Shown here: piece after piece, positions 11,509 through 41,044 of the stretch | How the letters are laid out: each line of letters starts with the position of its first letter | Numbering within the stretch: the stretch's first letter is position 1 | Source of the DNA: Myxococcales bacterium | GTDB lineage: Bacteria > Myxococcota_A > Polyangia > Polyangiales > Ga0077539 | Length of the DNA stretch: 64,000 nucleotides | Direction: 5' to 3' | Assembly: GCA_016792845.1 (NCBI GenBank) | Contig: JAEUKH010000054.1 | Location: 131,708 to 195,707 of the forward strand | Position numbers and translations under genes: made by a program | Notes under the pieces: model-generated | What the model was told of the DNA's origin: nothing | Database searches by the model: none | What the model saw: the letters and a program-made list of their open reading frames with translations, nothing else

Positions 11509-12596
11509 AGAGAGACTCCTTCGAGCATCTGGGGGTCGTGGAGGAACATCGCGAGGTAGGCTACCGCGAGCACGGCGAGGGCGCAGAAGGCCGCGCGGAG
11601 GGCCCTCGGCAAGAGCCCCGCGGTCTTGAGCGTCACCGCGGCGAGGTAGACCCCTATGGTGCCGAGGCCGAGGGTCAAAAAGGGCCACGGGTCGTGGTCG
11701 TCGGTGCGCCACGCGAGGAGCCCGCCGCCCGCCGTGAGGAGCCCCAGTTGGGCCAGCGGCGTGACCCGGGCGAGCTGGGCGACGAGCGACTTCTTGAGTC
11801 TGCCTCGAAAAATCTTCACCCCGGCCGCCGCGGCGCTGAGCGCGAGGGCGACGAGGAGGGCGACGCTCGCCCTGAGGAGGGCGCGTCGTCGGGCCAGCAC
11901 CCTGGCGTTGGCGCGCACGGCCTCGTCGACGTCGAGGCCCTCGACCTCGCGCGCGGCCTGGGTCTCGTCGCCGCTCCGCTGTCGTGCGGTGACCAGGCGG
12001 TCGGCGGCGAGGTCGCGGAGGTGCGGGGGCGTGGCGCCGTCACGGGCGAGGGCGAGGTAGACCCGCACGGCGTCGTCGGGGCGGGCGAGGCGTTCGAGGT
12101 AGGCCTCGGCGACGAGGTAGCGGGCTTCGGCGCGCACGCGCCCGGGGGCGAAGCGCGCGCTCTCGGCGTCGAGGCGCCGGATGGCGTCGAGGTCGCGGGC
12201 GAGGGCGGGGTCGCGGCGCACCCGTTCGAGGGCCCTGAGCGGGGCGAAATCGCCCTCGGCGTGGGCTTCGAGGTCTTCGATCCGGGCGATGGCCCGCGAG
12301 GCCCAACGGCTCGACGGGTCGAGGGCCACGAAGCGACGGTACCCGTCGAGGGCCGCGCCGAAGGCCATGGCCTCGTCGTCGGTGGCCGCGAGGAAGTACA
12401 CCCCGAGGTGCCGCAGGGCCGGGTCGGGGCGCCCGAGGAGCGCGCGAAAATGCTGCCGCGCGAGGTCGACCTGGCGGGCCTCAAGGGCGTCACGCCCCGC
12501 GCTGAGGCTCGGGTCTTGTTGGGCGAAGGCGAGGCCCGAGGCGAGGGCGAGGGAGATACTGAGTCTGACTCGAAAACCCGCGACCCGGCGACGCAT
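11505..12596 (-). CDS. hypothetical protein: signal peptide, TPR-like helical region, four C-terminal TM helices
   Basis: ORF 11505-12596. Signal peptide MRRRVAGFRVRLSISLALASGLAFAQQ. Helical repeats rich in A/L/R/D. C-terminal hydrophobic segments, e.g. VALLVALALSAAAAGV and AFCALAVLAVAYLAMFL. Confidence 0.7.
   Translation of the reverse strand: MRRRVAGFRVRLSISLALASGLAFAQQDPSLSAGRDALEARQVDLARQHFRALLGRPDPALRHLGVYFLAATDDEAMAFGAALDGYRRFVALDPSSRWASRAIARIEDLEAHAEGDFAPLRALERVRRDPALARDLDAIRRLDAESARFAPGRVRAEARYLVAEAYLERLARPDDAVRVYLALARDGATPPHLRDLAADRLVTARQRSGDETQAAREVEGLDVDEAVRANARVLARRRALLRASVALLVALALSAAAAGVKIFRGRLKKSLVAQLARVTPLAQLGLLTAGGGLLAWRTDDHDPWPFLTLGLGTIGVYLAAVTLKTAGLLPRALRAAFCALAVLAVAYLAMFLHDPQMLEGVSL
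11794..11808. repeat. palindrome family A, degenerate copy A6: TTGAGTCTGCCTCGA (11/15)
   Basis: Read directly. Lies inside CDS 11505-12596 and is read as R-G-R-L-K. It shares the flank CTCGAAAA with copy A7. Confidence 0.5.
12559..12573. repeat. palindrome family A, copy A7: CTGAGTCTGACTCGA (13/15)
   Basis: Read directly. About 20 nt downstream of the ATG of CDS 11505-12596 and read as R-V-R-L-S. Confidence 0.8.
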
Positions 12597-23115: not shown

Positions 23116-24287
23116 GGGCTCACCCTTCGTCGAAACGTTACGCGGTCTGAGAGCATGCTCGCCCCTTCGAGGATGGCGCCGACCGTCGGGTCGGTGTCGT
23201 TGAGAACCATGCGCCGCGCATAGGCCAGCGCGTAGGCGCCGACGATGGGCGCCTGCTCGGTGTCAGCGATGTTCTCACACCCGCCGAGGGCGAAGTACTG
23301 ATGGCAGCCACCTCGCACATCGATCCATGTCATGGGCATCGGCGCGGTGCTCTCGAACTGGGCCTCGGCCCCCACTGGGTCGTCGCCACCGCTCATCGCA
23401 AACATCGCAAAGCGAACCCCGCCGTGACCCGTCGGGCCGAGCCACTCGCGCCGCAGCGCGCCCGCCATCGCGAGCCCCGCCACCACCCGCTCGTCGCCCA
23501 CTCCGGCCGCAAACTGTGCGCGATCGAGGGCCGTACACGGGTTGGTCATGCACCGGGCCTCGACCGCCGCGGGGTCGAAGCGCGCGCCCCCGGCCGTCCA
23601 GACCGTGTGAACACCCGCCGAGTGGCCCGAGAGCAACACCCGGCTCACGTTGGCACGCCCCGACAGCGTCGCCGCGAGGGGCCCGTCGCGCAGCGCATCG
23701 AGGCTCGCGCTCACATCGCGCGCCCGAAGGTGAAAGATCGACGCGGGCAATGTTGACGGAGTGTCAGAGATCGTATTGCCGGTGTGATCGGGCGCCACCG
23801 CGACCCAGCCGTGGCTCGCAAAATACCGCATCAAGAAGTGACTCGTGGGGCCGAAGCCCTGGTGCCCGTGCGAGTACACATGCACCGGGTAGCCGTCGGG
23901 GTAGACCGGCACCTCTGACGGAGCGTCAACAATCGACTCGGGGTCCCTGAACAGCCGCCTGTAGGTTGGCCGCGGCCCCGACAGGGCCCGGGTGGGGTAC
24001 CAGAGGTGCAGGGTCAGGGTGCGCGGCGCGCTCGCGCCCGGGGGCGTGTAGCTGTGACTCACGCTGGTGTACCCGACGTTGAAGGGGCCCCGCGCGCGCA
24101 CCGACCACGACAGCGGCGCGCTCGGCAGCGGGCCCGCGTCGTCGGCGACGATGACCCGGTCGGCGCTCACCGCGTCGGCGCCCAAGGTGCCCGCGTCGTG
24201 CGCTGCGGGCGCTTCCGTACAGCCCGCGCAGGCCGCAGTCAGCAGCGTCGTCTCGACCACCCGTCGCAACATCGCCGCGATGATCAA
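23112..24287 (-). CDS. alpha/beta hydrolase (lipase / PAF-acetylhydrolase-like), probable lipoprotein
   Basis: ORF 23112-24287. N-terminal LLTAACAGC. VHVYSHGHQGFGP. Nucleophile elbow LLSGHSAGVHTV (GxSxG). Confidence 0.75.
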   Translation of the reverse strand: MIIAAMLRRVVETTLLTAACAGCTEAPAAHDAGTLGADAVSADRVIVADDAGPLPSAPLSWSVRARGPFNVGYTSVSHSYTPPGASAPRTLTLHLWYPTRALSGPRPTYRRLFRDPESIVDAPSEVPVYPDGYPVHVYSHGHQGFGPTSHFLMRYFASHGWVAVAPDHTGNTISDTPSTLPASIFHLRARDVSASLDALRDGPLAATLSGRANVSRVLLSGHSAGVHTVWTAGGARFDPAAVEARCMTNPCTALDRAQFAAGVGDERVVAGLAMAGALRREWLGPTGHGGVRFAMFAMSGGDDPVGAEAQFESTAPMPMTWIDVRGGCHQYFALGGCENIADTEQAPIVGAYALAYARRMVLNDTDPTVGAILEGASMLSDRVTFRRRVSP

Positions 24288-28124: not shown

Positions 28125-28179
28125 TCGACTGGTTACGTTACCAGGTCACCAGAACAACCCGAAAGAGTCAGGATTCACC

Positions 28180-29388
28180 ATGCAGAGACACGCACGGCTC
28201 GGCGCCACGGCGCTGGGGCTCATGGCATCGTTTTACCTTGTCGGTTGCGGCGATACGTCACCCTCGGCGGGCGACGCGGGGGCGAGCGACGGAGGCGCGA
28301 CGGTGCCCGCTGACGGCGCCCTCCCTGAGCGATTCAACACCCCGATGACGCCCGCGTTTGGTAGCATGACCAACGACCCCCGGGCGATCTTGGTGACGGT
28401 CTCGGGCGAGGCCGCGGCCACCGAGGGCTTCGCGTACTCGGCCACCCCCGCCGAGGGCGACCTGGTCTTCGTCGACGGCTGGCAGGTCAACATGACCCGG
28501 GTGCTCACCGTGATCGGCAACGTGCGCCTGAACCGCCTCGGCAACATGCCCAGCGACCCCTCGGTGGTCGGCGCCGCGGTGGCCGCTGACCCGCGCAGCT
28601 TCGCGGTCAACCTCACGCGCCCGGGGCCCATCGAGGGCGCAGGCGGCGAGGGCAGCGCGTGGCCCCTGGTGGCCTTTCGCAACGGCGTGAACGGGCTCAC
28701 CCTCGACCCCGCCCAACGCTACGCCTTCTCGTACGATGTCATCGCGGCCACGGCGGCCGCAGAGAACGTCAACCTCGACGCCGACGACGTCGCCCTCTAC
28801 CGCACGATGATCACCCGCGGCTGGAGCGTCTACGCCGAAGGAACCGCCACGTACCGAGGCCAGGCGCCCGAGGCCACCAGCGCCTTCGCGAGCTTCCCCA
28901 CGACGGTGCGCTGGCAGGTCGCGTACGGTGCGCCCGCGGCGTACCTCAACTGCAACAACCCCGACAACGGGGCCGAAGGGGCGCCGGGCGTCCAGCCGTC
29001 GGCCAACGGCGCGTACCGCGCGCAGATCACGTTTCACCTCGAACATTGGTTCTGGGGCGCGCTCCAGGTCGAAGACCCGCCGCTGCATTTTGACCCCTTC
29101 GCGGCGCGGGCCGCGGTGACCGGCGCCCAAGGCGAGGTCACCCTCGACGCCCTCCAAGGTGTGGTGCCCTCGAACCTCCAAGACCGCATGATGCGCCCCC
29201 TCGGCGACCGCGGCGGACAGACCCGCGGATACACCGTTCGCAACCCCGCCGCGCTCAGCTTTGACACCGGCGGTGTGTCATCGGTGCGCGACCTCCGCGA
29301 CTTCGTGGCCTTCTCGGGCCGGGCCAACGCGCACCTCAACGGCGAGGGCCTCTGTTTCGTGCGCCCAATGGGTGAGCTGCGATTTTGA
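28180..29388 (+). CDS. hypothetical lipoprotein
   Basis: ORF 28180-29388. Lipobox ALGLMASFYLVGCGD. Confidence 0.65.
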   Translation: MQRHARLGATALGLMASFYLVGCGDTSPSAGDAGASDGGATVPADGALPERFNTPMTPAFGSMTNDPRAILVTVSGEAAATEGFAYSATPAEGDLVFVDGWQVNMTRVLTVIGNVRLNRLGNMPSDPSVVGAAVAADPRSFAVNLTRPGPIEGAGGEGSAWPLVAFRNGVNGLTLDPAQRYAFSYDVIAATAAAENVNLDADDVALYRTMITRGWSVYAEGTATYRGQAPEATSAFASFPTTVRWQVAYGAPAAYLNCNNPDNGAEGAPGVQPSANGAYRAQITFHLEHWFWGALQVEDPPLHFDPFAARAAVTGAQGEVTLDALQGVVPSNLQDRMMRPLGDRGGQTRGYTVRNPAALSFDTGGVSSVRDLRDFVAFSGRANAHLNGEGLCFVRPMGELRF

Positions 29389-29399
29389 CACAGCGTCAA
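29385..29399. repeat. palindrome family B, copy B1: TTGACACAGCGTCAA (one arm mismatch), flank GAATGT
   Basis: Read directly. Its TGA (29386-29388) is the stop codon of CDS 28180-29388. Confidence 0.75.
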
Positions 29400-29543
29400 G
29401 AATGTCGCACGACGCGACCGGGGCGTTTTCTGACGGAGCGTTTGCCTGCGTAAAGCGCTGGTAGAATGGGGGCATCTGGGGTAGGTGCATCGGCCGCTGG
29501 CCGCGGATCGAAGACTTACCCCGTGGCAGGCAGAGTGTTGCCC

Positions 29544-31103
29544 ATGATGCGTCGTGATCGTTCTCGCATGGTGGCCCTGGCCCTCGGGCTTGTGGCGGCG
29601 TCGACTCTGGCTTCCCGCGCGGCCTCGGCGCAGCGTCTTGGGCGCACCGAGTTTCGCGCTGACCTCGGTGGCGGCACCACGCTGCACGACCACTACGCGG
29701 CCGATGTGGGGCTCAACACGCCGATGGCGGTGGGGCACATTCTGTTCGGGTTGCACCTCACCGAAGGGCTCTCGATTCAGGGCGGCGGCGGTTGGGGGCG
29801 GTTCTTCTTCGCCGACCAAGACGACACCACCTACTTCGACGCCGTGGCGGGTCTTCGCCTCGGCAGCTTCTCGGGCACCGTGCACCCGTGGATCGACGTA
29901 AACGGCGGCGGCTTCATCACCGACAACACCATGCATCCGGGCGTGCTCGGCGGCCTCGGGGTCGAGTTCGCCATCAACGACACGACGTCGATCGGCCCCT
30001 TCGGTCGCTTCGCGTACGTCTTCAACGGGTACACCGCGCCGACGCTGGTCAACCCGTCGATGCCGTCGAGCCCCGCGAGCGACACCCCCACGCCCCGCGA
30101 CATTTCATACTGGACGGCGGGGCTCTCGGTCACCGTGCGCCCCCCCGATGCGCCGCCTCCGCCGCCTCCGCCGCCTCCGCCGCGTGACACCGACAGCGAC
30201 GGCGTCAACGACCCCGACGACCAGTGCGTGAGCGAGCCTGCGGGGCAGCACCCCGACCCGGCCCGCCGCGGCTGCCCTGCGGCCGACACCGACAGCGACG
30301 GCGTCTTCGACCCCGACGACCAATGCGTGAACGAGGCCGCCGGCGAGCACCCCGACGCCGCCCGCCCCGGTTGCCCCCTCGCCGACGACGACCACGACGG
30401 CGTCTACGGCAGCGACGACCAGTGCCCCACCGAGCCCGCGGGGGCCCACCCGAACCCCGAGCGCGCGGGGTGCCCTGACGGCGACGAAGACCACGACGGC
30501 GTCTTCGACCACGCCGACCAGTGCCGCACCGAGCCCGTGGGCCTGCACCCCGACCCGGCCCGCGCGGGCTGCCCGGCGCCCGACCGCGACCACGACAACG
30601 TGCCCGACGCGACCGACCACTGCCCCGATCGCCCCGGCGCGCCGTCGCCGAACCCGGCCCGCAACGGCTGCCCGGGCCTCGTGCTCGTGACCGACGGCCA
30701 GGTGCGCATCAACCGCCCGGTCTTCTTCGGCAACAACAGCGACGCGGTGCTGCCCACGAGCACGCCGGTGCTCCGCGCGGTGGCCGACGCGCTCGCCGCC
30801 ACGCCCGAGATTCGCCAGGTGAGCGTCGAAGGCCACACCGACGACGTGGGCGACGACGCGCGCAACCTCGACCTCTCACGCCGCCGCGCCGCGAGCGTCG
30901 TGCGCTGGCTCACCACCACGGGCCGCATCGACGCCGCGCGCCTCGTGAGCGACGGCTTCGGCGAGACCCGTCCCCTCGCGCAGGGCACCACCCCCGCGGT
31001 GCGCGCGCAGAACCGCCGGGTCGAGTTCCGCATCGTAGCCTTCGGTGAGGCGCCCGCCGCTGCGCCCGCCGCTGCGCCCGCGACTGCGCCCGCGACGCCC
31101 TGA
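29544..31103 (+). CDS. OmpA-family outer-membrane protein with TSP3 repeats
   Basis: ORF 29466-31103 trimmed to ATG at 29544 (MMRRDRSRMVALALGLVAASTLASRAASAQ). PPPPPPPPP linker. Five repeats DxDxDGVxDxxDQCxxExxGxHPDxARxGCP. OmpA-like end VEGHTDDVGDDARNLDLSRRRAASVVRWL...RRVEFRIV. Confidence 0.85.
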   Translation: MMRRDRSRMVALALGLVAASTLASRAASAQRLGRTEFRADLGGGTTLHDHYAADVGLNTPMAVGHILFGLHLTEGLSIQGGGGWGRFFFADQDDTTYFDAVAGLRLGSFSGTVHPWIDVNGGGFITDNTMHPGVLGGLGVEFAINDTTSIGPFGRFAYVFNGYTAPTLVNPSMPSSPASDTPTPRDISYWTAGLSVTVRPPDAPPPPPPPPPPRDTDSDGVNDPDDQCVSEPAGQHPDPARRGCPAADTDSDGVFDPDDQCVNEAAGEHPDAARPGCPLADDDHDGVYGSDDQCPTEPAGAHPNPERAGCPDGDEDHDGVFDHADQCRTEPVGLHPDPARAGCPAPDRDHDNVPDATDHCPDRPGAPSPNPARNGCPGLVLVTDGQVRINRPVFFGNNSDAVLPTSTPVLRAVADALAATPEIRQVSVEGHTDDVGDDARNLDLSRRRAASVVRWLTTTGRIDAARLVSDGFGETRPLAQGTTPAVRAQNRRVEFRIVAFGEAPAAAPAAAPATAPATP

Positions 31104-31122
31104 GACCCCCCCTCCCTCGCAC

Positions 31123-31156
31123 GACCCCCAGCGGCCGCACCACGGCGTCGGGGGTC
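31123..31156 (+). terminator. possible stem-loop after the OmpA gene (GACCCCC ... GGGGGTC, 20-nt loop)
   Basis: A 7-bp GC stem read directly, followed by TCGCGTTTGG. The loop is long and the U-tract weak. Confidence 0.3.
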
Positions 31157-31182
31157 TCGCGTTTGGGCCTCGCGACCCGTTC

Positions 31183-31197
31183 TTGACACTCTGTCAA
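31183..31197. repeat. palindrome family B, copy B2: TTGACACTCTGTCAA
   Basis: Read directly. Intergenic, between the OmpA gene and the vWA lipoprotein gene. Confidence 0.9.
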
Positions 31198-31273
31198 ATC
31201 TCTCGCCGAGAGTTCACCGCGAAGTGCCCGGGCGATACCCACTTGTCACCGAGGGCTGTGCTAGAGACGGGTC

Positions 31274-32578
31274 GTGCGACGCTTCAATCGACTCTCTTGG
31301 CTTGGGCTCTTGTTGTGCGGCTGTGCGGGTGACCCTGTACCCTTCACAGAAGAGCCGCTCGACGCCGCGGCGGGCGACGACGCCTCGGGCGAGGTCGACG
31401 CGGTCACACCGGTCGACGACCTCGTCGCGGTGACCGACACGGTCTTCACCGCCGACGTGCCGCCGGTGACCCGCGACGTCTCGGCGCCGCGCGACATCAA
31501 TTTTGCAGAAGACGCCACCTGCACGAGCGTCTCGGCCAACGCGCAGATCGAGCGTCAGCCCGTCGACATCATCTGGATGGTCGACAACTCGACCAGCATG
31601 GCGCCCGCCATCGACCAGGTCATCATGGGGCTCAACAATTTCGCCCAGGTGATCGGTCAGCGCGGCCTCGATTACCGGGTCGTGATGCTCTCGCTGCGCA
31701 ACATGACCCGCAACGTTACCGTCAACGGCGGGCGGCGCTACGCCGTGTGCATCCCGCAACCGCTGGCGGGTGACGCCCGCTGCGGCAACGGCCCGCGCTT
31801 TCGCCACGCCTCGATCGACATCCGAAGCACCCAGCCGCTCGAACAGATGCTCGGGAGCCTCGCCCAGACCACGGGGTACACCGCCGACGACGACCGCGGG
31901 GGCGAAGTCTGGCGAGACTTTCTGCGGGCCGGGGCGAGCAAGACCTTCGTGGTGGTCACCGACGACAACTCGCGCTTCTCGGCGACCCAGTTCGAGACCT
32001 TTCGCGGGGGCCAGAACCCCTTCACAAGCACCCTGCGCCTGCCCCCCGGCGTGCTCGACCCTTCATGGAACGGCCTCTTCGCCAACTACACCTTCGCGGG
32101 CATCTACGGCTGGGGCAGCGAGACCAACCCCGACACCCGCTGCACCTACACCGGCACGACCACGCAGCCCTCTGCGGCGGGCACGGTCTACACCCAGCTC
32201 ATCGCCCGCTCGAACGGCGTCAGGGCCCGCATCTGTGATGGCGCCACGGCCTGGGGGCCCTTCTTCAACGCCATCGCCACCGCCGTCGACCGCGCCAGCC
32301 GCATCGAGTGCGACCTGGCCATCCCGAGGCCCCCAGACGGCTCGGTGCTCGACCCACGACGGGTCAACGTGTCGTTCTCCGGGAGCGTCAACACCCGCCT
32401 CGGCCGCGTGCTCGGCGCCACCGCCTGCGGCCCCGCGGGGGGCTGGCACTACGACAACGAGCAGTCTCCGACCCGGGTGGTGCTCTGCCCCGCCTCGTGC
32501 CAGTCGGCCCAAGAGCTCGTGCGAACGGGCGACACCACCGTGACGGTGCAGTTCGGCTGCCTCAGCGTGCCGGGGTAG
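31274..32578 (+). CDS. lipoprotein with a von Willebrand factor A-like domain
   Basis: GTG at 31274. Lipobox LGLLLCGCAG. MIDAS-like segment DIIWMVDNSTSMAPAIDQVIMGLNNFAQVI. Later TFVVVTDDNS. Confidence 0.7.
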   Translation: MRRFNRLSWLGLLLCGCAGDPVPFTEEPLDAAAGDDASGEVDAVTPVDDLVAVTDTVFTADVPPVTRDVSAPRDINFAEDATCTSVSANAQIERQPVDIIWMVDNSTSMAPAIDQVIMGLNNFAQVIGQRGLDYRVVMLSLRNMTRNVTVNGGRRYAVCIPQPLAGDARCGNGPRFRHASIDIRSTQPLEQMLGSLAQTTGYTADDDRGGEVWRDFLRAGASKTFVVVTDDNSRFSATQFETFRGGQNPFTSTLRLPPGVLDPSWNGLFANYTFAGIYGWGSETNPDTRCTYTGTTTQPSAAGTVYTQLIARSNGVRARICDGATAWGPFFNAIATAVDRASRIECDLAIPRPPDGSVLDPRRVNVSFSGSVNTRLGRVLGATACGPAGGWHYDNEQSPTRVVLCPASCQSAQELVRTGDTTVTVQFGCLSVPG

Positions 32579-32582
32579 AAGT

Positions 32583-32597
32583 TTGACAGCGTGTCAA
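32583..32597. repeat. palindrome family B, copy B3: TTGACAGCGTGTCAA (7-bp arms over 32582-32598)
   Basis: Read directly. Intergenic, 5 nt after the vWA gene stop and next to the terminator hairpin. Confidence 0.9.
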
Positions 32598-32602
32598 AAC
32601 AC

Positions 32603-32636
32603 AAGGGCCCTTTCACTGTGAAGCGAAAGGGCCCTT
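32603..32636. terminator. bidirectional intrinsic terminator hairpin
   Basis: AAGGGCCCTTTC (32603-32614) pairs perfectly with GAAAGGGCCCTT (32625-32636), with a 10-nt loop. On the minus strand the stem is followed by GTGTTTTG. It lies between convergent genes 31274-32578 (+) and 32667-33230 (-). Confidence 0.65.
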
Positions 32637-32666
32637 TGGTGGCTCAGCGCGGTGACCGCGAGGCGT

Positions 32667-33230
32667 TCAGATGGTGAGGCCGCTCTCGATGTCAGCGAGC
32701 TTGATGCGCGCGAGGGCCAAGTTGGCTTGAGCGCGGTTCAGCGCGAGGTACATGAAGAGGTTCGGGTGCCGGCCGAGCGGGCGAATGAGGTGATACTGCG
32801 AGGTCAGGGTGATGAGAATGTCTTCAATGCGGTCGGGGAGCTTGAGGGCATTCTTGGCGTTCATCTTAGCGCGCATCACTTCGGTGTTGGCCGCCGCGGC
32901 GAGCTCGATCGGGAAGGACATCGCCTCTGCGGTGCCGAGGGTCATCCCGGTCTCGTAGTCGACCAGCGCGACGGCGAGGGCCCCGGGGATTTCAAGAGCC
33001 TTCTTCAGCGATTCGGTGATCTCAGCCATGTTGCCTTCAAACCTCGGGGGCAGTGACGCCGGGGGCGTCGGGGGTTGGGGAGGGGGCGGAGGCGCCGGGC
33101 GGGGCGCCACCCACACATCGTCGGGACGCGTCGCGACCCAGCCAGCATCACCCTCGCTTGAGTCTTCAGTGAGCCCGAGGAACGCTTCAAGCAAGCTTTC
33201 AACGGGTTGGGGGCTGCGTGTTCGCGACAT
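32667..33230 (-). CDS. Roadblock/LC7 (MglB-like) domain protein with a Pro-rich N-terminal extension
   Basis: ORF 32667-33281 with ATG at 33230. The core LKKALEIPGALAVALVDYETGMTLGT...ILITLTSQYHLIRPL fits Roadblock/LC7. The N-terminal 65 aa contain PRPAPPPPPQPPTPP. Alternative start at the MAEITESL codon. Confidence 0.7.
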   Translation of the reverse strand: MSRTRSPQPVESLLEAFLGLTEDSSEGDAGWVATRPDDVWVAPRPAPPPPPQPPTPPASLPPRFEGNMAEITESLKKALEIPGALAVALVDYETGMTLGTAEAMSFPIELAAAANTEVMRAKMNAKNALKLPDRIEDILITLTSQYHLIRPLGRHPNLFMYLALNRAQANLALARIKLADIESGLTI

Positions 33231-33463
33231 GTTGTTCGACCCTTCGTAGAGTGTACGAATACAGGACAATTGGCCGTACACCAGACGAAATCGGGTCGAA
33301 AAACTTCGAGTCGTATCGATTCTTTCTTGAATTCATCTCTTCGCCGTGATTGCCCCACCACAGTCGCCAATGTGGTTGCGCAACTCGGTGCGCAAAAACA
33401 CCCGATTTGACCCCGAAATGGTGTCGCTCTGTGGCGCGTAGGCCGCGTCTGTGAGGCCTGATT

Positions 33464-34732
33464 TCAGGGCTTGAGCGAGAGCATCACGTCGACGCCGACG
33501 AGCGCGAAGACCACGAGCCACATCACGACGGCGATGATGATGCGGGTTTTGTGCTTCTTTTGAAGCGCCGCGAGGGCCTCGGCGTGGGCCTGCCGCAGCT
33601 GCGCATCGCGCGTCTGAGACTGCGCCTCACGCTGCTGCGCTTGCTGCTGAAAATACTGGCCTTGCTGCCAGCTCTCTTGCTGCAAGCGATGCACATCGGC
33701 CTGGTGCGCGTCGCGCGACTCTTGGAGGCTCTGTTCGAGCCCGCGGCGCGTCTCGTCGGCCTCGCGGCGCGCGGTCTCGAGGGCCTGCGCGGTCTCGTCG
33801 AGGCGCTGCTGGGTCTCGCGCAGTGTGCGCGTGAGGCGCTCGTGTTCGGCCTTCTCGCGGGCCTCTCGCTCGCGCCGCTGTCGGTCGGCCTCGCCGCGCT
33901 GGGCTTGCGCCTCTTGGAGCCGGAGCTCTCGCTCCTGGCGCTCTCTCTCTTGCAGATTCCACGCGGCCCAGGCGGCCTGGTTCGCGGCCTCTTGCTCAGA
34001 CTGCTCTCGCTGCTGTTGCACCATCGGCCGCATCGACGAGGTGCCCTCGAGCAGCAGCCACCACGGCTCGATGCGCCCCGGCACCGGCTGCCCCTGCGCG
34101 AAATAGAGCAAGACCCGCAGCGGCACCACCCGCGCCGCGAGGCTCTGCGGCAGCGCAAACGCTTCGCGCTCGCCGCAGCGCTGACACTCCGCCGACGAGC
34201 GCCCCTGAGAGAGCATCCGAAGGGTCACCGGCGAGGCGCAGCGCGTGCAGAGCGGCGCCCCGGCACCGCAGCGCATCTGCATCGTCGACTGCAACGGCAC
34301 CCGCTCGCTCGGGAGCCGCGCCGTCGCCAACGACTGCCCCACCTCGGCGAAGGGGTTGAAGGCCCCGAGCGCGGCGTTGGTGCCGAAATAGTCAGGGTGC
34401 CCGAGGTCGACCACGGCGTGCGCGAGGTGCACCACCTCGTCCCACCAGGCGACGTCGAGGAGCGTGCGCTCGCCGCAGGCGTGACAGCTCAGGCCCTCGT
34501 CGATGGCGCTCGGCGAGGGGGCCAACACCGTCGCGCAGCGCGGGCACGGCACCGTCAGCTCAAGCCGCGCCCAGGGCCGCCCCGGCAGGAGGTTCGGCAC
34601 CGTGTGACCGCGCACCCCCAACGGGCTCTGGCAAACCTCGCACTGCCCCGCAGCCCCCGGCGCAGCGACCCCGCACACCGGGCAGACCCGAATCTCGTTC
34701 GCGAACTGGCTCACCGCGCCCGGAGGGTGCAC
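33464..34732 (-). CDS. hypothetical multi-zinc-ribbon, coiled-coil, tail-anchored membrane protein
   Basis: ORF 33464-34807 trimmed to GTG at 34732 because the upstream gene ends at 34761 (GTG 34714 is also possible). Several CxxC pairs (CPVCG..CEVC, CPRC..CHAC, CTRC..CQRC). About 150 aa of Q/E/R-rich coiled coil. Terminal TM helix IIIAVVMWLVVFALVGVDVML. Confidence 0.65.
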   Translation of the reverse strand: MHPPGAVSQFANEIRVCPVCGVAAPGAAGQCEVCQSPLGVRGHTVPNLLPGRPWARLELTVPCPRCATVLAPSPSAIDEGLSCHACGERTLLDVAWWDEVVHLAHAVVDLGHPDYFGTNAALGAFNPFAEVGQSLATARLPSERVPLQSTMQMRCGAGAPLCTRCASPVTLRMLSQGRSSAECQRCGEREAFALPQSLAARVVPLRVLLYFAQGQPVPGRIEPWWLLLEGTSSMRPMVQQQREQSEQEAANQAAWAAWNLQERERQERELRLQEAQAQRGEADRQRREREAREKAEHERLTRTLRETQQRLDETAQALETARREADETRRGLEQSLQESRDAHQADVHRLQQESWQQGQYFQQQAQQREAQSQTRDAQLRQAHAEALAALQKKHKTRIIIAVVMWLVVFALVGVDVMLSLKP

Positions 34733-34760
34733 CGCATCGGGCCGTCGCCGCAATCGTAGA

Positions 34761-35753
34761 TCACACCCCCGGCGCCCGGGTCGATAGCACCCAGTCGGCC
34801 AAGGCACCGAAGCGCTCGCTCAAGAGCAAATGCCGCAAACGCCAGAGCGGCGAGTGCCACGCCGAGGGCGCGATCTTGCCGTCGAGCACCTCGAGCATCG
34901 CCTCTGCGGTCAGTGTTGACAGTGTGTCAAGAACCCTGGCCCCCCGCGCGGCGCTGGCGAGGCTCGGGTCGCCCGCGTAGGTCTCGCGCTCGAAATACCG
35001 GTACCGCAAGGGGAAGCTCCGCACGATCTCGAAGAAGGTCGGCCGCGGGCCGCGGTTGAGCGGCGCCTGGCCGTTTCGGGCGAGCTCATCTTCGAGCGAG
35101 CGCCGCGGCAAGGTGGCGTACTGCGCAGAGACCCAGTCGCCGAGCCCGTGCAAGAGCAAGCTGGTCTCGACGGCGCCGCCGTGGACGTCACCCAGCAAGG
35201 CGCGCACGTCGAGCCCCATGGGCTCGGCGAGGATGTGACTGGCGTCGCTCGAACCGCCCGTCAGGCGCCCGAGGAGCAGCGAGAACACCGGCACCATCTT
35301 CGCCCCCGGGCAGCGCCGCATGACCCGCGCGCAGGCCTCCTCGATGGCCACGATGTGCCGCGGGCCGCCGTGAAAATTGCTCACCCAGAGGGTGTCAAAG
35401 CCTTGCGTCGCGAGGCTCACCCCGAGGTCTTCGAGCATCCGGGTGATGGTCGAGGTGCGAAACCTGATCGAGCCGCGGTGCGGCAGCACATCGGCCGCGG
35501 CGTAGATCGCGGGCAGCTTCACGAAGCGAAGCCCGGGGCGCGCCTCGGCCACCCGCCGCGCCGCCGCGTCGAGGAGCATCTCAGCCTCGGCGATGTCGGC
35601 GATCACGGGCAGGTGCGGGCCGTGCACTTCGAGCGGCGAGCAGCTCACCAGCGCGACCGTGGGCTGCCCGCGGAGCCGCGCGAAATCAGCGCCGGTGAGG
35701 CGCCGCCAGTCAGAGATGGGGTCTTCGATCATCGCGGCCCGAGAGCCTACCAT
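34761..35753 (-). CDS. creatininase-family amidohydrolase
   Basis: VSCSPLEVHGPHLPVIADIAEAE and WVSNFHGGPRH match the creatininase-family metal-binding motifs. Start ATG 35753 or 35732. Confidence 0.8.
   Translation of the reverse strand: MVGSRAAMIEDPISDWRRLTGADFARLRGQPTVALVSCSPLEVHGPHLPVIADIAEAEMLLDAAARRVAEARPGLRFVKLPAIYAAADVLPHRGSIRFRTSTITRMLEDLGVSLATQGFDTLWVSNFHGGPRHIVAIEEACARVMRRCPGAKMVPVFSLLLGRLTGGSSDASHILAEPMGLDVRALLGDVHGGAVETSLLLHGLGDWVSAQYATLPRRSLEDELARNGQAPLNRGPRPTFFEIVRSFPLRYRYFERETYAGDPSLASAARGARVLDTLSTLTAEAMLEVLDGKIAPSAWHSPLWRLRHLLLSERFGALADWVLSTRAPGV
34916..34930. repeat. palindrome family B, copy B4: TTGACAGTGTGTCAA, flank GAAC
   Basis: Read directly. Lies inside the creatininase-family CDS and is read as L-D-T-L-S. 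Confidence 0.9.
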
Positions 35754-35779
35754 CGCGGCGCGGGCGGCGGGGCGCGGGG

Positions 35780-38700
35780 CTATTTGTGCTCGAGCTCTTC
35801 GACCCCGGTGAAGGGGCTCGGCGGCGCGTCGAGGTAGCGAGCCGTGCGGGCGCGACGGAGCGCGAACACCGGGTCATCGGCGAGCCGCGGGGCCAGCGCG
35901 TCGAAGGCCGCGAGGGCCTCGGCGAAGCGCCCCGCGCCGTGCAGGGCGAGGGCCGCGTGCCAGGCCGCCAAGGTGTCTGCCTTGGCCGCCCGCAGCGCCT
36001 CGGGGTCGGCGTCGAAGACCTCGTAGAGCGTCACCGGGGCCATGCGGCCGACGACCCTGACGCGGTCGACCTCGCGCAAACCGAAGCGCCCCGGAGGCAG
36101 CGCCGCGGCGGTCTGATCGCCGATCAAGAGCGCGACGTTGTAGTGCTTGGTGAGCGACTCGATGCGGGCCCCGAGGTTGACGCAGTCGCCGATCACGCCG
36201 CACTTGATGCGCTGCGGGCCGCCGATGGTGCCGAGGGTCAGCTCGCCCGTGTTGAGGCCGACGCCGATGGCGATGGGTCGTCGGCCCTCGGCCGCGCGAC
36301 GGGCGTTGAGCGCGCCGAGCCGCGCGAGCATGCCGACCCCGGCCACCACCGCGGCTTCGGGGGCGCCGTCGAAGAGGGCCATGATGGCGTCACCGATGTA
36401 ACTGTCGACGAAGCCGCCCTGGTCGAGGATGGCGGGCTCCATCGCGGCGAGGTAGTCGTTGATGAAGGCGATGTTCTCTTCAGGGGTCATGCCCTCGACG
36501 TGACGGGTGAAGCCTCGCATGTCGCTGAAGAGCACCGTCATGGTCTTCTGGACGCTGTCGCCGAGGGCCACCTCGTCGATGCTCTTGTGCCCGAGCGAGC
36601 GGATGAACTCCGCGGGCACGAAGCGCCGGTTGGCGTCGGTGAGCGCGATCTGGCGCCCGAGGGCGTCGCGGAGCTCGTCGTAGAGCCGCGCGTTCTCGAG
36701 CGACACCGCGGCCTGCGCCGCGAGCACCCGCACGAGCTCGACCCGCGCCGGCGGAAAGGCCCCCGGCACGCTGTCGTGCTCAAGGTAGAGCACCCCCGTC
36801 ACCGTGCCCTGATTCGACAAGGCCGTGCAGAGCACCGAGCGCACCCCCTGGGCCCTGACATACGCGTCGCCCACGTACGCGCCGTGCGTCGCCGCGTCGC
36901 TCAGCAGCACCGTCTCGCCCGTGCGCGCCACATACCGCAGCACGCTGCTCGGGAGGTTTGACACTGTGTCAAGATCGCGCGTCTCGCGCACGAAGCGCCC
37001 CCCGACGTGGCTCTCGGCCTCGACCCAGAGGGCCCCGTCGCGCAGCCTGAGGAGCGCCCCGCGCCGCGCCCCCGCGTTCTCGATCACGACGTCGAGCACG
37101 CGGTTGAGGAGCTGGTCGAGCACGATCTCGCCCGAGAGCGCCCGCGCGGCCTTGAGGGCCGACTCCAGGTCGAGCGCCTCGACCCGGGTGTTGGTGGTGG
37201 TGGTGGCTCCGGCGCTCGCGCTCACCGCCGCTGGGCCTTCGGGCCCGAGGGCGAACTCTGCGTCGAGGCGCCGCACCAAGGCGCCCGCGCCGTAGCGCTG
37301 GAGCGCGCCCCGGGCCTCGCGGGCCAGCGAGATGGCGAGGCCCTGACGGCCCATGCTGCGGTGCCACCGCGCGGCGCGGGTCAACACGATGGCCTCGTCG
37401 CCCGGCGTGGCGCCCTGCCGCGACGCGGCGACGGCGCGCTCAAAGTGCGAGAGGGCGTCGTTCGTGCGGCCCTCGACCCGGGCCAGCTCGGCGTCGAGGA
37501 GCGTCGCGCGGAGGCCGTAGCTCTGCGCGTTGCGGGCGCCCCAGGCGCGGTACCCCGAGACCCGCTGGCGGAGCTGAACGTGAGCCCGCGCGCGGCGCGC
37601 CAGGGGCCATGTTGACAGCGTGTCAAACATCGCCAGGAGGCCATAGAACCTCACCGCGGGGAGGTACACCTGTCCGGCGATGAGCGCCGCGTTGGCCTCG
37701 ACCTCGTCGTAGCTCTCGCAGGCCTCGGGGCCCATCGCGAAGAGGGCTCGGCGCATGATGCGCACGACGTTGGCGTTGGTGACGCCGTTGAGGTCGCCGG
37801 CGCCGCGGTACCGGGCCACCACGACCTCGTCGGCGGCCTCGGTGGCTTCGAGGGTGGCCTCTCCCTGGAGCGAGCGGAGGGTCAAGCGACCGAGGCCGAT
37901 GAGCTCAGAGGTCTTGGTCTGTCGAAGGTCTGACAGTGTGTCAAAGCTCTTGTCGAAGCGCGGCCCGAGCTCGGCGAGGGAGACCCCGCGGAAGAGGTCG
38001 ACGAGGTCGGCGCCCGAGAGGTTGTAGGCCCAGTACTCAAGGTTGCCGGTCTCGAGGGCCCGCCGCGCGGCGATTTGGTGGTCGGCGACGCAGTCTGCGA
38101 GGGGCGCCGTCCAGTGGCGGATGAAATACTGGAGAATGAACTCGATCTGGGGGCGCAGGGGCTCGTCTGCGAAGCGGTCGATGGTGCGCCGGGCGAGGTC
38201 GCCGAAGCGGAGCCCCGTCTCGACCTGGCCGAAGTGCGCCGTCACGATGAGCCCGTAGGCGATGTATCCGAAGGCCGAGAGCCCCGTCGCGCCGTGCGCC
38301 ACCGTGAGCTGAACCACCCGACACGCGAGGAGCGGGAAGAGGTTCGGCGACGCGAAGAACGCCGACGCCGCCGCCGAGCCGATGATCTTGAACGCGATCT
38401 TCAGCGACGCGTCGCGCAGCTCGGGGAGCTCGGCGAGGGCGTCCATCGAGCGAAACCCGAGGCTCACCCGGGTCGCCGCGAGGGCCCGCAGCACATGCCC
38501 CTGCCCGGGCTCAGCGGGGAAGCTCAGCCCCAACATCGCCAACGCCTCAAGGCTGAGCGCGATGGCGTCGACGTGGCGCCCGCGATGGTTCGCCGCGCGC
38601 ACCCGCACCTCGGCGATGCGCGCCCGCGACAAGGTGTCAGGCGCGACGCTCAGGGCCTCGCGCACCGACGCCTCGACGGCCTCGAAGTCGGTCGCCAGGT

Positions 38701-41044
38701 ACGCGCACTCGGCCCGCTCGATGAGCCGATCGAGCCGCGATTCGAGCGCCACCGCGCGCGAACCCCAAAGTGTTGACACCAAGTCAAGATGACCCAGCGC
38801 GGCGCGGTACGCGGTGGCCGCGCGGGCCAGGCGAGCGGCCTGCCAGACCCGTGACGCCATGGCCGTCCGCGTGTCAGGCTCGGCGATCGCGGCCTCGCCG
38901 CGCGAGAGGTGGTACGCGAGGGCGAAGAGCTCGGGCCCCGGGAGCGCGTCGCCGTAGAGGGCCACGAGGGTCTCGGCGATCTGCGCGTGGAGCGCCGGGA
39001 GCCCCGTCTCGGGCAAGAGCTGATGGGCGGCCTCGCGCACCCGGTCGTGGGCGAAGCGCCAAGGCTGATCGGTGTTGCTCGGCACGACCAGGCCGAGCCC
39101 GAGGGCCTCACCGAGCTGGGCTTCGAGCTGCGCGTGATCGTGCCCGGTGAGCGCCGCGAGCATGGCGAGACCGAACTGATTGCCGACCGCCGAGGCGAGG
39201 GTCAGCGTACGGCGCACCGCCGGGTCGAGCGCCGCGAGCCGCGCCGCCACGAGGCCCGAGACGGTGTCGGGCACGCCCGCAGACTTCACCGCGTCGAGCG
39301 ACCAGGCCCAGCGCCGGCGCTGCGGGTCGAAGTGAATCACCCCCGCGTCTGAGAGGGCCCCGAGAAACTCCACCGTCGCGTAAGGGTTGCCGCCGGTGCG
39401 GGCGCGAACCACCCCCGCCAGCGCCGCGACCTGGGCCTCGTCGGCCGGGAAGACGCGCCCCACCAGCGCCGCCACATCGTCGAGGTCGAGGGCGTCGAGG
39501 TGCACCTCGTCGACGGTGCCGTCGACACCGCTTAAGCGCTGCCAGAAGCCCCCGAGGCGCCCCTCGGGGTCGGGCCAGGGGTCGCGCTCGGCGGTCACCA
39601 AGAGCAAATGCGGGAGCCGCCGCGCCGCCACGCTCTCGATCAGCTTCAGCGAGGCCTCGTCGGCCCACTGGAGGTCGTCGAGGAAGAGCACCAGCGGCCG
39701 CTCGGCGGTGCTGAGGGCGCTAACAAGTGCTCGAAATGTCAGTTGAAACCGAACGTCGCTCTCGGCCGGGCCGAGGGCCGGCAGCGGCTCGGTCTCACCG
39801 AGAAGGGTGCCGAGCTCGGGCACCACCTCGACGAGGCACCGCGCGTTGGGCTTGAGCGCCTCGCGGAGCTGGTACCGCCAGAGCGCGAAGCCCTCGGCGT
39901 CGAGGCCCAAGAGCGAGCCCACCGCCTGGCGCAGCGCGCTCGCGATGCCCGCGTACGGCACCGCGCCCTGGAGCGGGTCTTGTTTGCCCTCGACGAGCAA
40001 GCCCCCGAGCGCCGCCACCTCGCGCTGGAGCGCCCGTACGAGCGACGACTTGCCCGCCCCGGTCTCGCCCCGAAGCCGCACCGTCTCGCCTCGCCCCGCC
40101 CGCGCTCGACCGAGGGCCTCGCGGAGCACCGAGAGCGCCCCGGCGCGGCCCACGAGCTGCTCAGGGCGCCGAAAGCGCTCGGGCACGTCGTCGCAGCCCA
40201 AGGCGAAGGTCGCAGTCTCACCGCGGGCGAACTGCGCCGCGCAGCGCGCGAGGTCGGCCGCGAGCCCCGCCGCGCTCTGGTACCGCTGGGCCGGGTCTTT
40301 TTCGAGCAAGCGATGGATCACCCCGCAGAGGCTCGGGCTCACCGCGGGGGCCACCGACGCGAGGGCCGCGGGCTCCTGGGCGAGGTGCGCGTGGAGCCAC
40401 CCCAAGGTCGACTCGGCCCGCAGCGGCAGCTGACCCGCGAGGGCCTCGTAGAAGACCACCCCGAGGGCGTACAAATCGCTCGCCGGAGACAGCGTTCGTT
40501 GAGTGCGCCCGCTCTGCTCGGGGGCGATGTACGCGAGGGTGCCCTCGACCCGGTCGCGGGCCGCCACCCCTTGCTCGCCGTGCAGCCGCAGCGCGATGCC
40601 GAAATCGCTCACCCAAGCCTCGGCGCCGTCTTCGCTCAAGAGCAGGTTCGAGGGCTTGATGTCGCGGTGCAACACACCCGCCCGATGCACCACCCCCAAG
40701 GCGGCCACCACCGCCCGCGCCATCGGGTAGAACGCGGCCTCGGTGAGGGCGCCCCGCGCGAGCCGTTGGGCCAGGGTCTCGTGACCGCGCCAGAGCCGCA
40801 CCAGCACCGGCCGACCCCCGTCGTGCGCGAGGCCGACCCCGCGCGCCACCGCCCCGTCAGGGAGCGACTGCGTGATCGCGAGCTCGTGTTCGAGCTGGGC
40901 GCCCAAACGGCCTTCAGGGTCGCTCGCCCTCACCGCCTTCAGCGCGACGGTCTCGCCGTCGCCCCGCCGGTGTGCGCGCCAAACCGTAAAGGCGGTGCTC
41001 TCTGCCACCGCCTCAGCACCCTCGTAACCCGCAATGTGCACCAT
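35780..41044 (-). CDS. multidomain signalling protein: Ser/Thr protein kinase, AAA/STAND-type ATPase, helical repeat region, GAF, class III adenylate/guanylate cyclase
   Basis: ORF 35780-41044 (1754 aa). Kinase HRDIKPSNLLL, DFG and APE. P-loop GETGAGKSSL. GAF around LDQLLNRVLDVVIENAGARRGALL. Cyclase TVLFSDMRGFT...YIGDAIMALF...GLNTGELTLGTIGG...VIGDCVNLGARIES. Confidence 0.9.
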   Translation of the reverse strand: MVHIAGYEGAEAVAESTAFTVWRAHRRGDGETVALKAVRASDPEGRLGAQLEHELAITQSLPDGAVARGVGLAHDGGRPVLVRLWRGHETLAQRLARGALTEAAFYPMARAVVAALGVVHRAGVLHRDIKPSNLLLSEDGAEAWVSDFGIALRLHGEQGVAARDRVEGTLAYIAPEQSGRTQRTLSPASDLYALGVVFYEALAGQLPLRAESTLGWLHAHLAQEPAALASVAPAVSPSLCGVIHRLLEKDPAQRYQSAAGLAADLARCAAQFARGETATFALGCDDVPERFRRPEQLVGRAGALSVLREALGRARAGRGETVRLRGETGAGKSSLVRALQREVAALGGLLVEGKQDPLQGAVPYAGIASALRQAVGSLLGLDAEGFALWRYQLREALKPNARCLVEVVPELGTLLGETEPLPALGPAESDVRFQLTFRALVSALSTAERPLVLFLDDLQWADEASLKLIESVAARRLPHLLLVTAERDPWPDPEGRLGGFWQRLSGVDGTVDEVHLDALDLDDVAALVGRVFPADEAQVAALAGVVRARTGGNPYATVEFLGALSDAGVIHFDPQRRRWAWSLDAVKSAGVPDTVSGLVAARLAALDPAVRRTLTLASAVGNQFGLAMLAALTGHDHAQLEAQLGEALGLGLVVPSNTDQPWRFAHDRVREAAHQLLPETGLPALHAQIAETLVALYGDALPGPELFALAYHLSRGEAAIAEPDTRTAMASRVWQAARLARAATAYRAALGHLDLVSTLWGSRAVALESRLDRLIERAECAYLATDFEAVEASVREALSVAPDTLSRARIAEVRVRAANHRGRHVDAIALSLEALAMLGLSFPAEPGQGHVLRALAATRVSLGFRSMDALAELPELRDASLKIAFKIIGSAAASAFFASPNLFPLLACRVVQLTVAHGATGLSAFGYIAYGLIVTAHFGQVETGLRFGDLARRTIDRFADEPLRPQIEFILQYFIRHWTAPLADCVADHQIAARRALETGNLEYWAYNLSGADLVDLFRGVSLAELGPRFDKSFDTLSDLRQTKTSELIGLGRLTLRSLQGEATLEATEAADEVVVARYRGAGDLNGVTNANVVRIMRRALFAMGPEACESYDEVEANAALIAGQVYLPAVRFYGLLAMFDTLSTWPLARRARAHVQLRQRVSGYRAWGARNAQSYGLRATLLDAELARVEGRTNDALSHFERAVAASRQGATPGDEAIVLTRAARWHRSMGRQGLAISLAREARGALQRYGAGALVRRLDAEFALGPEGPAAVSASAGATTTTNTRVEALDLESALKAARALSGEIVLDQLLNRVLDVVIENAGARRGALLRLRDGALWVEAESHVGGRFVRETRDLDTVSNLPSSVLRYVARTGETVLLSDAATHGAYVGDAYVRAQGVRSVLCTALSNQGTVTGVLYLEHDSVPGAFPPARVELVRVLAAQAAVSLENARLYDELRDALGRQIALTDANRRFVPAEFIRSLGHKSIDEVALGDSVQKTMTVLFSDMRGFTRHVEGMTPEENIAFINDYLAAMEPAILDQGGFVDSYIGDAIMALFDGAPEAAVVAGVGMLARLGALNARRAAEGRRPIAIGVGLNTGELTLGTIGGPQRIKCGVIGDCVNLGARIESLTKHYNVALLIGDQTAAALPPGRFGLREVDRVRVVGRMAPVTLYEVFDADPEALRAAKADTLAAWHAALALHGAGRFAEALAAFDALAPRLADDPVFALRRARTARYLDAPPSPFTGVEELEHK
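36958..36972. repeat. palindrome family B, copy B5: TTGACACTGTGTCAA, flank GATC
   Basis: Read directly. Lies inside the kinase-cyclase CDS and is read as L-D-T-V-S. Confidence 0.9.
37612..37626. repeat. palindrome family B, copy B6: TTGACAGCGTGTCAA (identical to B3)
   Basis: Read directly. Lies inside the kinase-cyclase CDS and is read as F-D-T-L-S. Confidence 0.9.
37930..37944. repeat. palindrome family B, copy B7: CTGACAGTGTGTCAA (one mismatch)
   Basis: Read directly. Lies inside the kinase-cyclase CDS and is read as F-D-T-L-S. Confidence 0.8.
38773..38787. repeat. palindrome family B, copy B8: TTGACACCAAGTCAA (one mismatch), flank GATG
   Basis: Read directly. Lies inside the kinase-cyclase CDS and is read as L-D-L-V-S. 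Confidence 0.75.

Follow-up and report, generated by a model that had tools for sequence, protein, structure and literature searches.

A clustered TTGACAC-N-GTGTCAA palindrome in and between genes of a Myxococcales chromosome, a probable TetR-type operator

Why would a chromosome of ~70% G+C carry one palindrome eight times within 9.4 kb, and more often inside genes than between them? The question is raised by a 64-kb stretch of a Myxococcales bacterium (contig JAEUKH010000054.1, positions 131,708 to 195,707; the whole of this stretch is called the window), with a third-codon-position G+C content (GC3) of ~0.9, in which copies of TTGACA-N3-TGTCAA, here termed family B or the B word, run from 29385 to 38787. 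We find that the B word is a DNA-level signal under selection and not a peptide motif. Judged by its placement beside regulator genes in other bacteria, it is the same as a predicted operator type of TetR-family regulators. We tentatively read the copies in the window as operator-type sites of a homodimeric helix-turn-helix (HTH) protein, likely of the TetR family and encoded outside the window, which together would form a multi-operator platform; we give this reading a probability of roughly 0.45.

The palindrome and its copies

Pattern searches recovered the eight copies of the original prediction with the sequences and positions it gave: five perfect (31183, 32583, 34916, 36958 and 37612) and three with one mismatch (29385, 37930 and 38773). 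Shuffles of the window that preserve dinucleotides give an expectation of 0.00 perfect copies and 0.01 copies at ≤1 mismatch, and seven of the nine occurrences of the hexamer TTGACA in the 64 kb fall within B copies. Eight uniformly placed sites would span ≤9.4 kb of 64 kb with P ~1e-5. The claim that no copy lies elsewhere in the window stands at ≤1 mismatch; a 2-mismatch search adds a single weaker copy at 23753, a possible outlying member of the array. The 6-bp arms first described are part of a longer conserved word. A position weight matrix (PWM) built from the 16 half-sites reads tYTTGACAC-N-GTGTCAARa, a palindrome of two 7-nt arms around one central base (7-1-7) with extensions, in which 15 of 16 half-sites have C or G at position 7, flank positions -2/-1 are T-rich and the flanks read TTC/GAA. 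Six of the eight sites are centered on A or T; spacer bases vary and the arms are fixed. Symmetrised and run over the window, the matrix separates the eight sites (24.9 to 33.6) and 23753 (21.3) from the next-best position (13.1). Across 1.5 Mb of loci around homologues of the kinase-cyclase gene that holds four of the copies, ~493 kb of it with >60% G+C, no comparable A/T-rich palindrome array was found. The sites and the adjoining hairpin are as follows.

B site, 29385..29399: TTGACACAGCGTCAA, one mismatch; its TGA (29386-29388) is the stop of gene 28180-29388; followed by AGAATGT, ~170 nt upstream of the OmpA-family gene start at 29568; PWM 31.8
B site, 31183..31197: TTGACACTCTGTCAA, perfect; intergenic, 77 nt upstream of gene 31274-32578; PWM 31.6
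B site, 32583..32597: TTGACAGCGTGTCAA, perfect; in the 89-bp convergent gap between stops at 32578 and 32667; PWM 32.6
Hairpin, 32603-32636: G+C-rich, 15-bp stem, bidirectional terminator-like; directly after B site 32583; not a member of the repeat family
B site, 34916..34930: perfect; in the creatininase-family gene 34761-35753, minus strand; L-D-T-L-S, read by hand from the gene frame; PWM 32.2
B site, 36958..36972: TTGACAC-T-GTGTCAA, perfect 7-1-7; kinase-cyclase gene, amino acid 1358, GAF domain; L-D-T-V-S; PWM 33.6
B site, 37612..37626: perfect; kinase-cyclase gene, amino acid 1140; F-D-T-L-S; PWM 30.5
B site, 37930..37944: CTGACAGTGTGTCAA, one mismatch; kinase-cyclase gene, amino acid 1034; F-D-T-L-S; PWM 24.9
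B site, 38773..38787: TTGACACCAAGTCAA, one mismatch; kinase-cyclase gene, amino acid 753; L-D-L-V-S; PWM 26.1
Weaker B-like site, 23753..23767: TTGACGGAGTGTCAG, two mismatches; in gene 23112-24287; PWM 21.3

Three of the eight sites occupy intergenic or boundary positions, and their proposed placements (29385 as a TGA stop, 31183 between genes, 32583 between the stop at 32578 and the hairpin) are borne out. Partial copies occur as well: a pair of B-like half-sites with a 5-nt spacer, TTTGACAC-CGGCG-GTGTGTCA, lies at 29260-29281, 125 bp upstream of 29385, and isolated extended half-sites (GTGTCAAA) lie at 18315 and 35392.

All five intragenic copies are read in one phase, as (F/L)-D-(T/L)-(L/V)-S, and the rare codons that the original prediction noted in them are indeed rare: ACA makes up 2.4% of Thr codons (24 in 17,544 codons, four of them within B sites), TCA 5.8% of Ser and CTT 5.3% of Leu. 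The shared phase is the one point in favor of chance or of a conserved peptide motif, and coding constraints account for it, since one phase makes TGA and another needs Cys and Gln. The original prediction held that the word was a DNA signal and would fall if the pentapeptide were kept in homologues through other codons. Applied to kinase-cyclase orthologues, this test failed to refute it. The closest retrievable orthologues are Polyangiales proteins of 52-53% identity with the upstream synteny kept (RPE65, amine oxidase, kinase), and the B word is absent from the orthologue loci retrieved (L001, L083 and L084). In codon-level alignments, L-D-T-V-S at 36958 stands against L-D-A/D-A-D in the orthologues, F-D-T-L-S at 37612 against A-D-A-L/V-A/G, F-D-T-L-S at 37930 against R/L-A-Q/A-L-Q/R, and L-D-L-V-S at 38773 against L-D-L-A-V/R. 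At all four sites the orthologues use GC-rich codons, with no gap or indel. Because residues and codons both differ without a gap, the B word was built by substitutions in this lineage, several of them non-synonymous. With the pentapeptide missing from orthologues, three copies outside coding sequence proper and the shuffle expectations given above, a peptide motif is rejected, and we hold the chance of either explanation to be practically nil. A mobile element of the repetitive extragenic palindromic (REP) or miniature inverted-repeat transposable element (MITE) type was likewise rejected, given the lack of an indel at the four kinase sites, the intragenic position of most copies and the lack of a longer repeat body.

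Could the signal act in the transcript, as hairpins for processing, stability or termination? A terminator hairpin follows the copy at 32583, two copies share bases with stop codons, and in some phage contigs related palindromes immediately precede ribosome-binding sites or start codons. Against this, a 1-nt loop is too short for a 7-1-7 palindrome to close, which leaves realistic stems of five or six A/T-rich pairs; no T-run follows the sites; Rfam covariance models at gathering thresholds gave 0 matches across the whole window; and the copies lie in genes of both orientations as well as in gaps that do not look transcribed. An RNA-level element is therefore highly improbable.

Near-identical public contigs add little. 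Strains at 99.3-100% identity (Logan contigs, all of which fall inside the window) keep every site, with one altered spacer base at 32583 in one strain and the arms intact, and at this level of divergence the retention is uninformative.

The B word in metagenomes and viral contigs

Whether the B word has a use elsewhere can be asked of metagenomes. In JGI metagenome contigs, 31 of 120 occurrences (26%) of exact TTGACAC-N-GTGTCAA lie ≤400 bp from a TetR-like open reading frame (ORF), at its 5' end, where such ORFs were called with a hidden Markov model (HMM) built from ten regulators found beside the B word. The background is 0.2%, the share of bases in 1.46 Mb of control loci that lie within 400 bp of a TetR-like ORF. 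This association makes TetR-type operators the most likely identity of the sites in the window. Two to four copies occur in 25 of the 120 metagenome loci, mostly as tight clusters spaced 15, 26-28 or 36 bp that separate a TetR-family gene from its divergent neighbor, which often encodes an NmrA-like NAD(P)-binding protein. In seven loci (L565, L633, L568, L618, L537, L607 and L623) a conserved divergent TetR-family/NmrA-like pair encloses three B words, two abutting and one 26-28 bp off, and the last copy overlaps the start of the regulator, ATG-TCA-AGT. Pfam places TetR_N in two unrelated subfamilies beside the word, one of them with a TetR_C_34 domain. SlmA and RefZ are weak NCBIfam/PDB relatives of these proteins; homology to HrtR was not seen among them. 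TTGACAC-N-GTGTCAA would thus be a widespread predicted autoregulatory operator of at least two uncharacterized TetR subfamilies and a lead for regulon annotation.

Viral contigs carry the same word in another layout. An IMG/VR scan with TTGACACNGTGTCAA returned at least 120 stretches; among the matches listed, 15 of 120 loci hold 3-10 copies at kilobase spacing, in contigs of 37-67% G+C that have almost no proteins in common. These dispersed arrays belong to at least eight unrelated contig groups. Two control palindromes of matched composition turned up in 63 and 48 stretches across the entire collection, almost always as single matches; the first had only four loci with three or more copies, and the second had single matches only. 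The array-bearing contigs (L087, L144, L136, L127, L110, L130/L139/L142, L166, L204 and L183; TTGACA-N3-TGTCAA, 3-10 copies) returned no annotated relatives, share few proteins and yielded no common binder. In L087, ten copies, each flanked by CTTG/CAAG, stand ahead of successive small genes. Intragenic viral copies read x-D-T-V-S, a phase that thereby recurs in unrelated phage proteins. No association with TetR genes was seen in the viral sets.

A 14-bp variant, TTGACACGTGTCAA, forms perfect arrays of ~1 copy per kb in phage contigs of 42-50% G+C (L454, L463, L475, L491, L496, L500, L502, L504, L512 and L514), with flanks (A/T)TT and AA(A/T); most copies examined lie 0-5 nt from a start codon. 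Gene-by-gene arrays of the B word and of this variant in uncultivated phages are likewise a lead for regulon annotation. In three ~19-kb IMG/VR contigs (3300045988_051638, _031070 and _078088; loci L088/L095, L104/L148 and L109/L126, two per contig) the B word lies ~110-190 bp from the locus end. In L164, which comes from a different contig of that sample, three copies are spaced 115 bp apart. Such copies could represent iterons or terminal inverted repeats belonging to linear elements.

The viral arrays raise an alternative hypothesis, namely that the sites in the window are dispersed operators, as in phage immunity, of a dimeric binder outside the TetR family, such as a phage-type/XRE repressor or a CRP/FNR-like protein with unusual spacing. 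Kilobase-scale arrays in at least eight unrelated contig groups, sharing the x-D-T-V-S phase and with no TetR gene seen, favor such a binder, as does the scarcity of multi-copy loci among the control words. The densest cluster in the window lies within an adenylate/guanylate cyclase gene, and TGA-N7-TCA is one base longer than the TGA-N6-TCA of CRP/FNR boxes; HcpR boxes resemble tcTTGAC-N4-GTCAAgg (PMC4534486). However, the genes beneath the array are ordinary chromosomal ones with no phage genes among them, N7 spacing misfits CRP/FNR geometry, no such regulator is encoded nearby, and the only positive evidence obtained for a protein family points to TetR. We consider a non-TetR binder unlikely.

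Genes beneath the array and a second, related array

Genes were called with a GC3 filter, the gene tables of near-identical public contigs and Pfam. Those beneath the B array are listed below.

24971-29388, plus strand: TonB-dependent receptor gene and two genes of no assigned family
29568-31103, plus strand: OmpA-family gene
31274-32578, plus strand: 434-amino-acid gene of no assigned family
32667-33029, minus strand: roadblock/MglB-like gene of 120 amino acids, by eye from its translation and without a Pfam match
33464-34732, minus strand: zinc-ribbon coiled-coil gene
34761-35753, minus strand: creatininase-family gene
35780-41044, minus strand: Ser/Thr-kinase-AAA-TPR-GAF-cyclase gene of 1754 amino acids

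Within the OmpA-family gene, 30087-30680 holds five or six tandem repeats of 99 bp, read by eye as thrombospondin type-3-like D-x-D-x-D-G motifs.

An unbiased scan of the window for over-represented 8-mers gave exactly two families, and palindrome enumerations agree. Besides B, there is family A, CTGAGTC-W-GACTCAG, also 7-1-7, with a central base that is always A or T and a locality of P ~5e-6. It has seven copies (6408-12572), not the two to four first proposed, and all of them lie in or touch coding sequence.

A site, 6408..6420: TGAGTCTGACTCA; in the zinc-ribbon gene 5890-6549; E-S-D-S
A site, 8078..8090: CGAGTCAGACTCA, one mismatch; in the AhpC/TSA lipoprotein gene 7951-8604; S-Q-T-Q
A site, 9482..9494: perfect; its TGA is the stop of the methyltransferase gene 8627-9484; in a 28-bp convergent-operon gap; followed by AGAATGT
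A site, 10338..10350: perfect; in the radical-SAM gene 10161-11288, minus strand; E-S-D-S; preceded by ACATTCT, the reverse complement of that flank
A site, 11314..11326: perfect; 3' end of a 76-amino-acid gene, 11278-11508, minus strand; 26 nt upstream of the radical-SAM start codon
A site, 11795..11807: TGAGTCTGCCTCG, two mismatches; in gene 11505-12596; TTCTTGA flank; PWM 24.1
A site, 12560..12572: one mismatch, a T-to-C change on the coding (minus) strand that turns a would-be in-frame TGA into CGA

The kinship of A and B that the original prediction suspected from their flanks is supported: both share the 7-1-7 frame, the outer bases TGA-N7-TCA and the outer flank TCAAGAA(TGT), and differ in the inner triplet, GTC/GAC in A and CAC/GTG in B. 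The asymmetric flank reported for several copies is also present. TCAAGAA, found 16 times in the window, adjoins six of the 15 A/B sites (11795 counted) and an A-like half-site at 45142; AGAATGT, found seven times, follows three palindromes in one register. A 10-nt flank, TCAAGAATGT, is identical beside two A sites and one B site (9492-9501, 10331-10340 as reverse complement, and 29396-29405), and two of these three palindromes are the ones that supply a TGA stop (9482 and 29385). The same flank accompanies an A-like half-site at 45136-45149, close to where a DEAD-box helicase gene begins. The two arrays also share a layout. Each spans a point where two long operons converge and places one site in the intervening gap (9482 at 9484/9512; 32583 at 32578/32667), and the three plus-side sites are spaced 1670/1404 bp in A and 1798/1400 bp in B. 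A zinc-ribbon protein is encoded near each array; the two were rejected as paralogues on comparison. Outside the window the A word was not met: matches in IMG/VR viral contigs formed no arrays and were redundant records of one conserved gene; no copy turned up in 2.1 Mb of other loci; and JGI metagenomes held no copy of the extended word.

Such partial flank identity, with TCAAGAATGT at 9492, 10331 and 29396, invites the explanation that the copies are a by-product of local copying (from a master copy, by gene conversion of short patches or by template switching) and bind nothing. The strict locality of the arrays and their cores, identical within an array and different between arrays, fit this idea. 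However, likeness stops 3-10 nt beyond the palindromes and there are no longer repeats around the sites; the orthologue alignments contain no indels; spacers vary and arms are fixed; and we know of no mechanism for 15-bp patches that lack flanking homology. The stop-avoiding phase and the T-to-C change point to purifying selection at work while the word was kept, and the word has an independent operator role, predicted from its placement, elsewhere. Copying is very unlikely to explain the arrays.

The main alternative is that each array is a regional landmark that concentrates a DNA-binding protein for a purpose other than transcription, such as segregation, nucleoid occlusion, division-site control or domain organization, in the manner of ParB-parS or KorB-OB clamps or of SlmA-SBS and RefZ-RBM. 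A density of ~1 site per kb over 6-15 kb regardless of gene structure, sites written into coding sequence, centering on a convergent junction with a site in the gap, and no regulator gene found locally are consistent with this, and two neighboring arrays with distinct but related words have a parallel in replicon-specific parS variants. However, no parA/parB, smc or matP-like gene is present among the window genes, the known landmark patterns are absent, there is no evident reason for two differing centromere-like arrays 17 kb from each other, and the use of the word documented elsewhere is that of an ordinary autoregulatory operator. A landmark role therefore seems rather unlikely.

Two regions of the window carry features of another kind. 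Inside the family A array, 9512-11508 combines the radical-SAM gene, whose Cys-rich C-terminus looks SPASM-like by eye, with ORFs of 115, 102 and 76 amino acids that match no family; it is possibly a cluster for a ribosomally synthesized and post-translationally modified peptide (RiPP). At 63345-63800, a non-coding stretch holds three copies of a hairpin, GGGCAGGCACAAGGCCTGCCC, two of them preceded by GATCACATGTTC, and between the hairpins a 197-bp tandem array of the heptamer GTCGCCC with a 28-bp super-unit. Public contigs of this species end at this repeat stretch.

Readers of the array and known systems

If the B sites are TetR-type operators, as we tentatively propose, eight to nine high-affinity copies would have arisen by point substitutions in this lineage, at the price of amino acid changes and rare codons in the kinase-cyclase and creatininase genes. 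Many dimers would then be held on ~10-15 kb, to either side of the place where two long opposing operons meet. Of the copies, those near promoters or in the gap (29385, 31183 and 32583) could be classical operators or end-of-operon roadblocks, and the intragenic copies could be auxiliary operators that act by roadblock, looping or as a local-concentration trap. Family A may be an equivalent array for a paralogous protein at the neighboring convergence point. Avoidance of the stop-creating phase, or its repair by the T-to-C mismatch at 12560, supports this reading. Of the features of a TetR operator, the dyad symmetry (15 bp, 7-1-7) is present in the B word and its occurrence in promoter regions of TetR genes is seen in other bacteria; an adjacent cognate TetR gene is absent from the window.

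Several observations weigh against the TetR reading. Copy number, kilobase-scale dispersion, intragenic positions and the lack of a local regulator gene do not fit an ordinary TetR regulon: TetR operators typically come as one to three copies within 60 bp at a promoter, that of the regulator or of its target, whereas here eight to nine copies are spread over 9-15 kb, five of them deep in genes. TetR regulators are usually encoded beside their targets, and in the 64 kb neither Pfam (TetR_N among called genes and small ORFs) nor the TetR HMM (six-frame ORFs) found a match. The sole HTH gene found, an XRE-cupin gene (56001-56717), lies beside sulfate-assimilation genes. No sigma-70-like promoter overlies any B site, though promoter rules of this lineage may differ; a reading of the word as a sigma-70 promoter or double -35 element was rejected because no -10 element stands at the proper spacing. 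Viral contigs bear dispersed B-word arrays with no TetR gene in the loci fetched (≤15 kb each), so other protein families may also read the word. Lastly, a scan of genome contigs and a search of 5.8 billion proteins returned no kinase-cyclase relative between 53% and ~99% identity, the intermediate divergence at which conservation of the sites can be set against neutral drift.

We therefore file the B sites as working like TetR operators, with no named regulon membership demonstrated. The plainest outcome, a TetR repressor encoded in trans whose local regulon is unusually rich, remains likely. A bolder hypothesis, which we regard as a long shot, is that ~10-kb neighborhoods of the chromosome are marked by private 15-bp palindromes read by paralogous TetR-like proteins, as a system of address or insulation. 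The words would then be embedded in coding sequence at the protein's expense and centered on collision points of convergent operons, and arrays of tightly bound dimers would organize, insulate or silence a segment rather than control promoters in the ordinary way. If the sites are occupied in vivo, a bacterium would reshape residues and codon usage of housekeeping and signaling genes to install many high-affinity sites for one regulator over 10 kb, and neighboring segments could bear different words. Arrays at convergent junctions would make models of roadblock and insulation directly testable.

How does the array compare with known systems? Like the B word, tetO and the hrtO of Lactococcus lactis HrtR are 15-bp palindromes with a single central base. 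The sequence of hrtO, which we take to be ATGACACAGTGTCAT, would have the core TGACAC-N-GTGTCA in common with the B word and would place G and T at positions 11 and 12. Its length is 15 nt (PMC7200772). TetR-family dimers bind palindromes, and for HrtR and TetR these are parted by one nucleotide and bound with a dissociation constant (Kd) of ~0.2 nM, with HrtR contacting G11 and T12 (PMC5389471, on AibR). Tested as patterns, tetO and the MrpC boxes fit neither the A nor the B sites. The likeness to the TetR-family RutR box of Escherichia coli noted in the original prediction pointed to the right protein family, as the 31 of 120 TetR associations suggest, and the half-site TTGAC is similar. However, the box itself (TTGACCAnnTGGTCAA, 16 bp with even spacing and half-site TTGACCA) fits no B site at ≤3 mismatches, and RutR sites are scattered over the genome whereas B sites are clustered in 10 kb. 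RutR sites are reportedly mostly intragenic, according to Shimada et al. (2008).

Analogies to parS and matS, also raised in the original prediction, which itself noted that the word is identical to none of these boxes, were not supported: word length and spacing differ, and no pattern matched. ParB-parS and KorB-OB resemble the B array in having many copies of one palindrome, allowed in genes and regionally clustered, and the OB of KorB, a palindrome of odd length, silences at long range from sites remote from promoters. Myxococcus xanthus has 22 clustered parS (PMC7022226). In the window, parS (TGTTNCACGTGAAACA, 16 bp) has 0 matches at ≤2 mismatches and ParA/ParB genes are absent; elsewhere, the B word is associated with TetR genes, and no link to ParB-family genes was found. 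The 13-bp matS (GTGACRNYGTCAC) fits no A or B site. The SBS of SlmA (GTGAGTACTCAC), the NBS of Noc (ATTTCCCGGGAAAT) and the OB of KorB (TTTAGCSGCTAAA) each have 0 window matches at ≤2 mismatches. CRP/FNR boxes (TGA-N6-TCA, as in TTGAT-N4-ATCAA and TGTGA-N6-TCACA) differ from the TGA-N7-TCA of A and B, and no FNR, HcpR or CRP pattern matched.

Temperate phages offer another comparison. L5 stoperators, P1 C1 operators and phiC31 CIRs are sets of many short sites at kilobase spacing, in and between genes, read by one repressor. Viral contigs do carry arrays of the B word, whereas the window is chromosome without phage genes; stoperators are asymmetric and orientation-dependent, and the B word is palindromic. 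Literature searches with the A and B words as strings returned nothing relevant, and to our knowledge two adjacent, dense, largely intragenic arrays of related words, centered on convergent junctions, have not been described.

SlmA on SBS and RefZ on RBM are TetR-fold proteins on palindromes in genes, where chromosomal position and not promoter context matters. SBS and RBM sets span hundreds of kilobases, compared with 10 kb for the B array, and nothing was found that links the arrays to cell division. RutR, SlmA and RefZ are TetR-family proteins with many sites that are mostly intragenic or position-specific, and the array in the window, if occupied in vivo, would extend the short list of regional sequence-specific systems, which includes ParB/parS, KorB/OB, SlmA/SBS, RefZ/RBM and MatP/matS.

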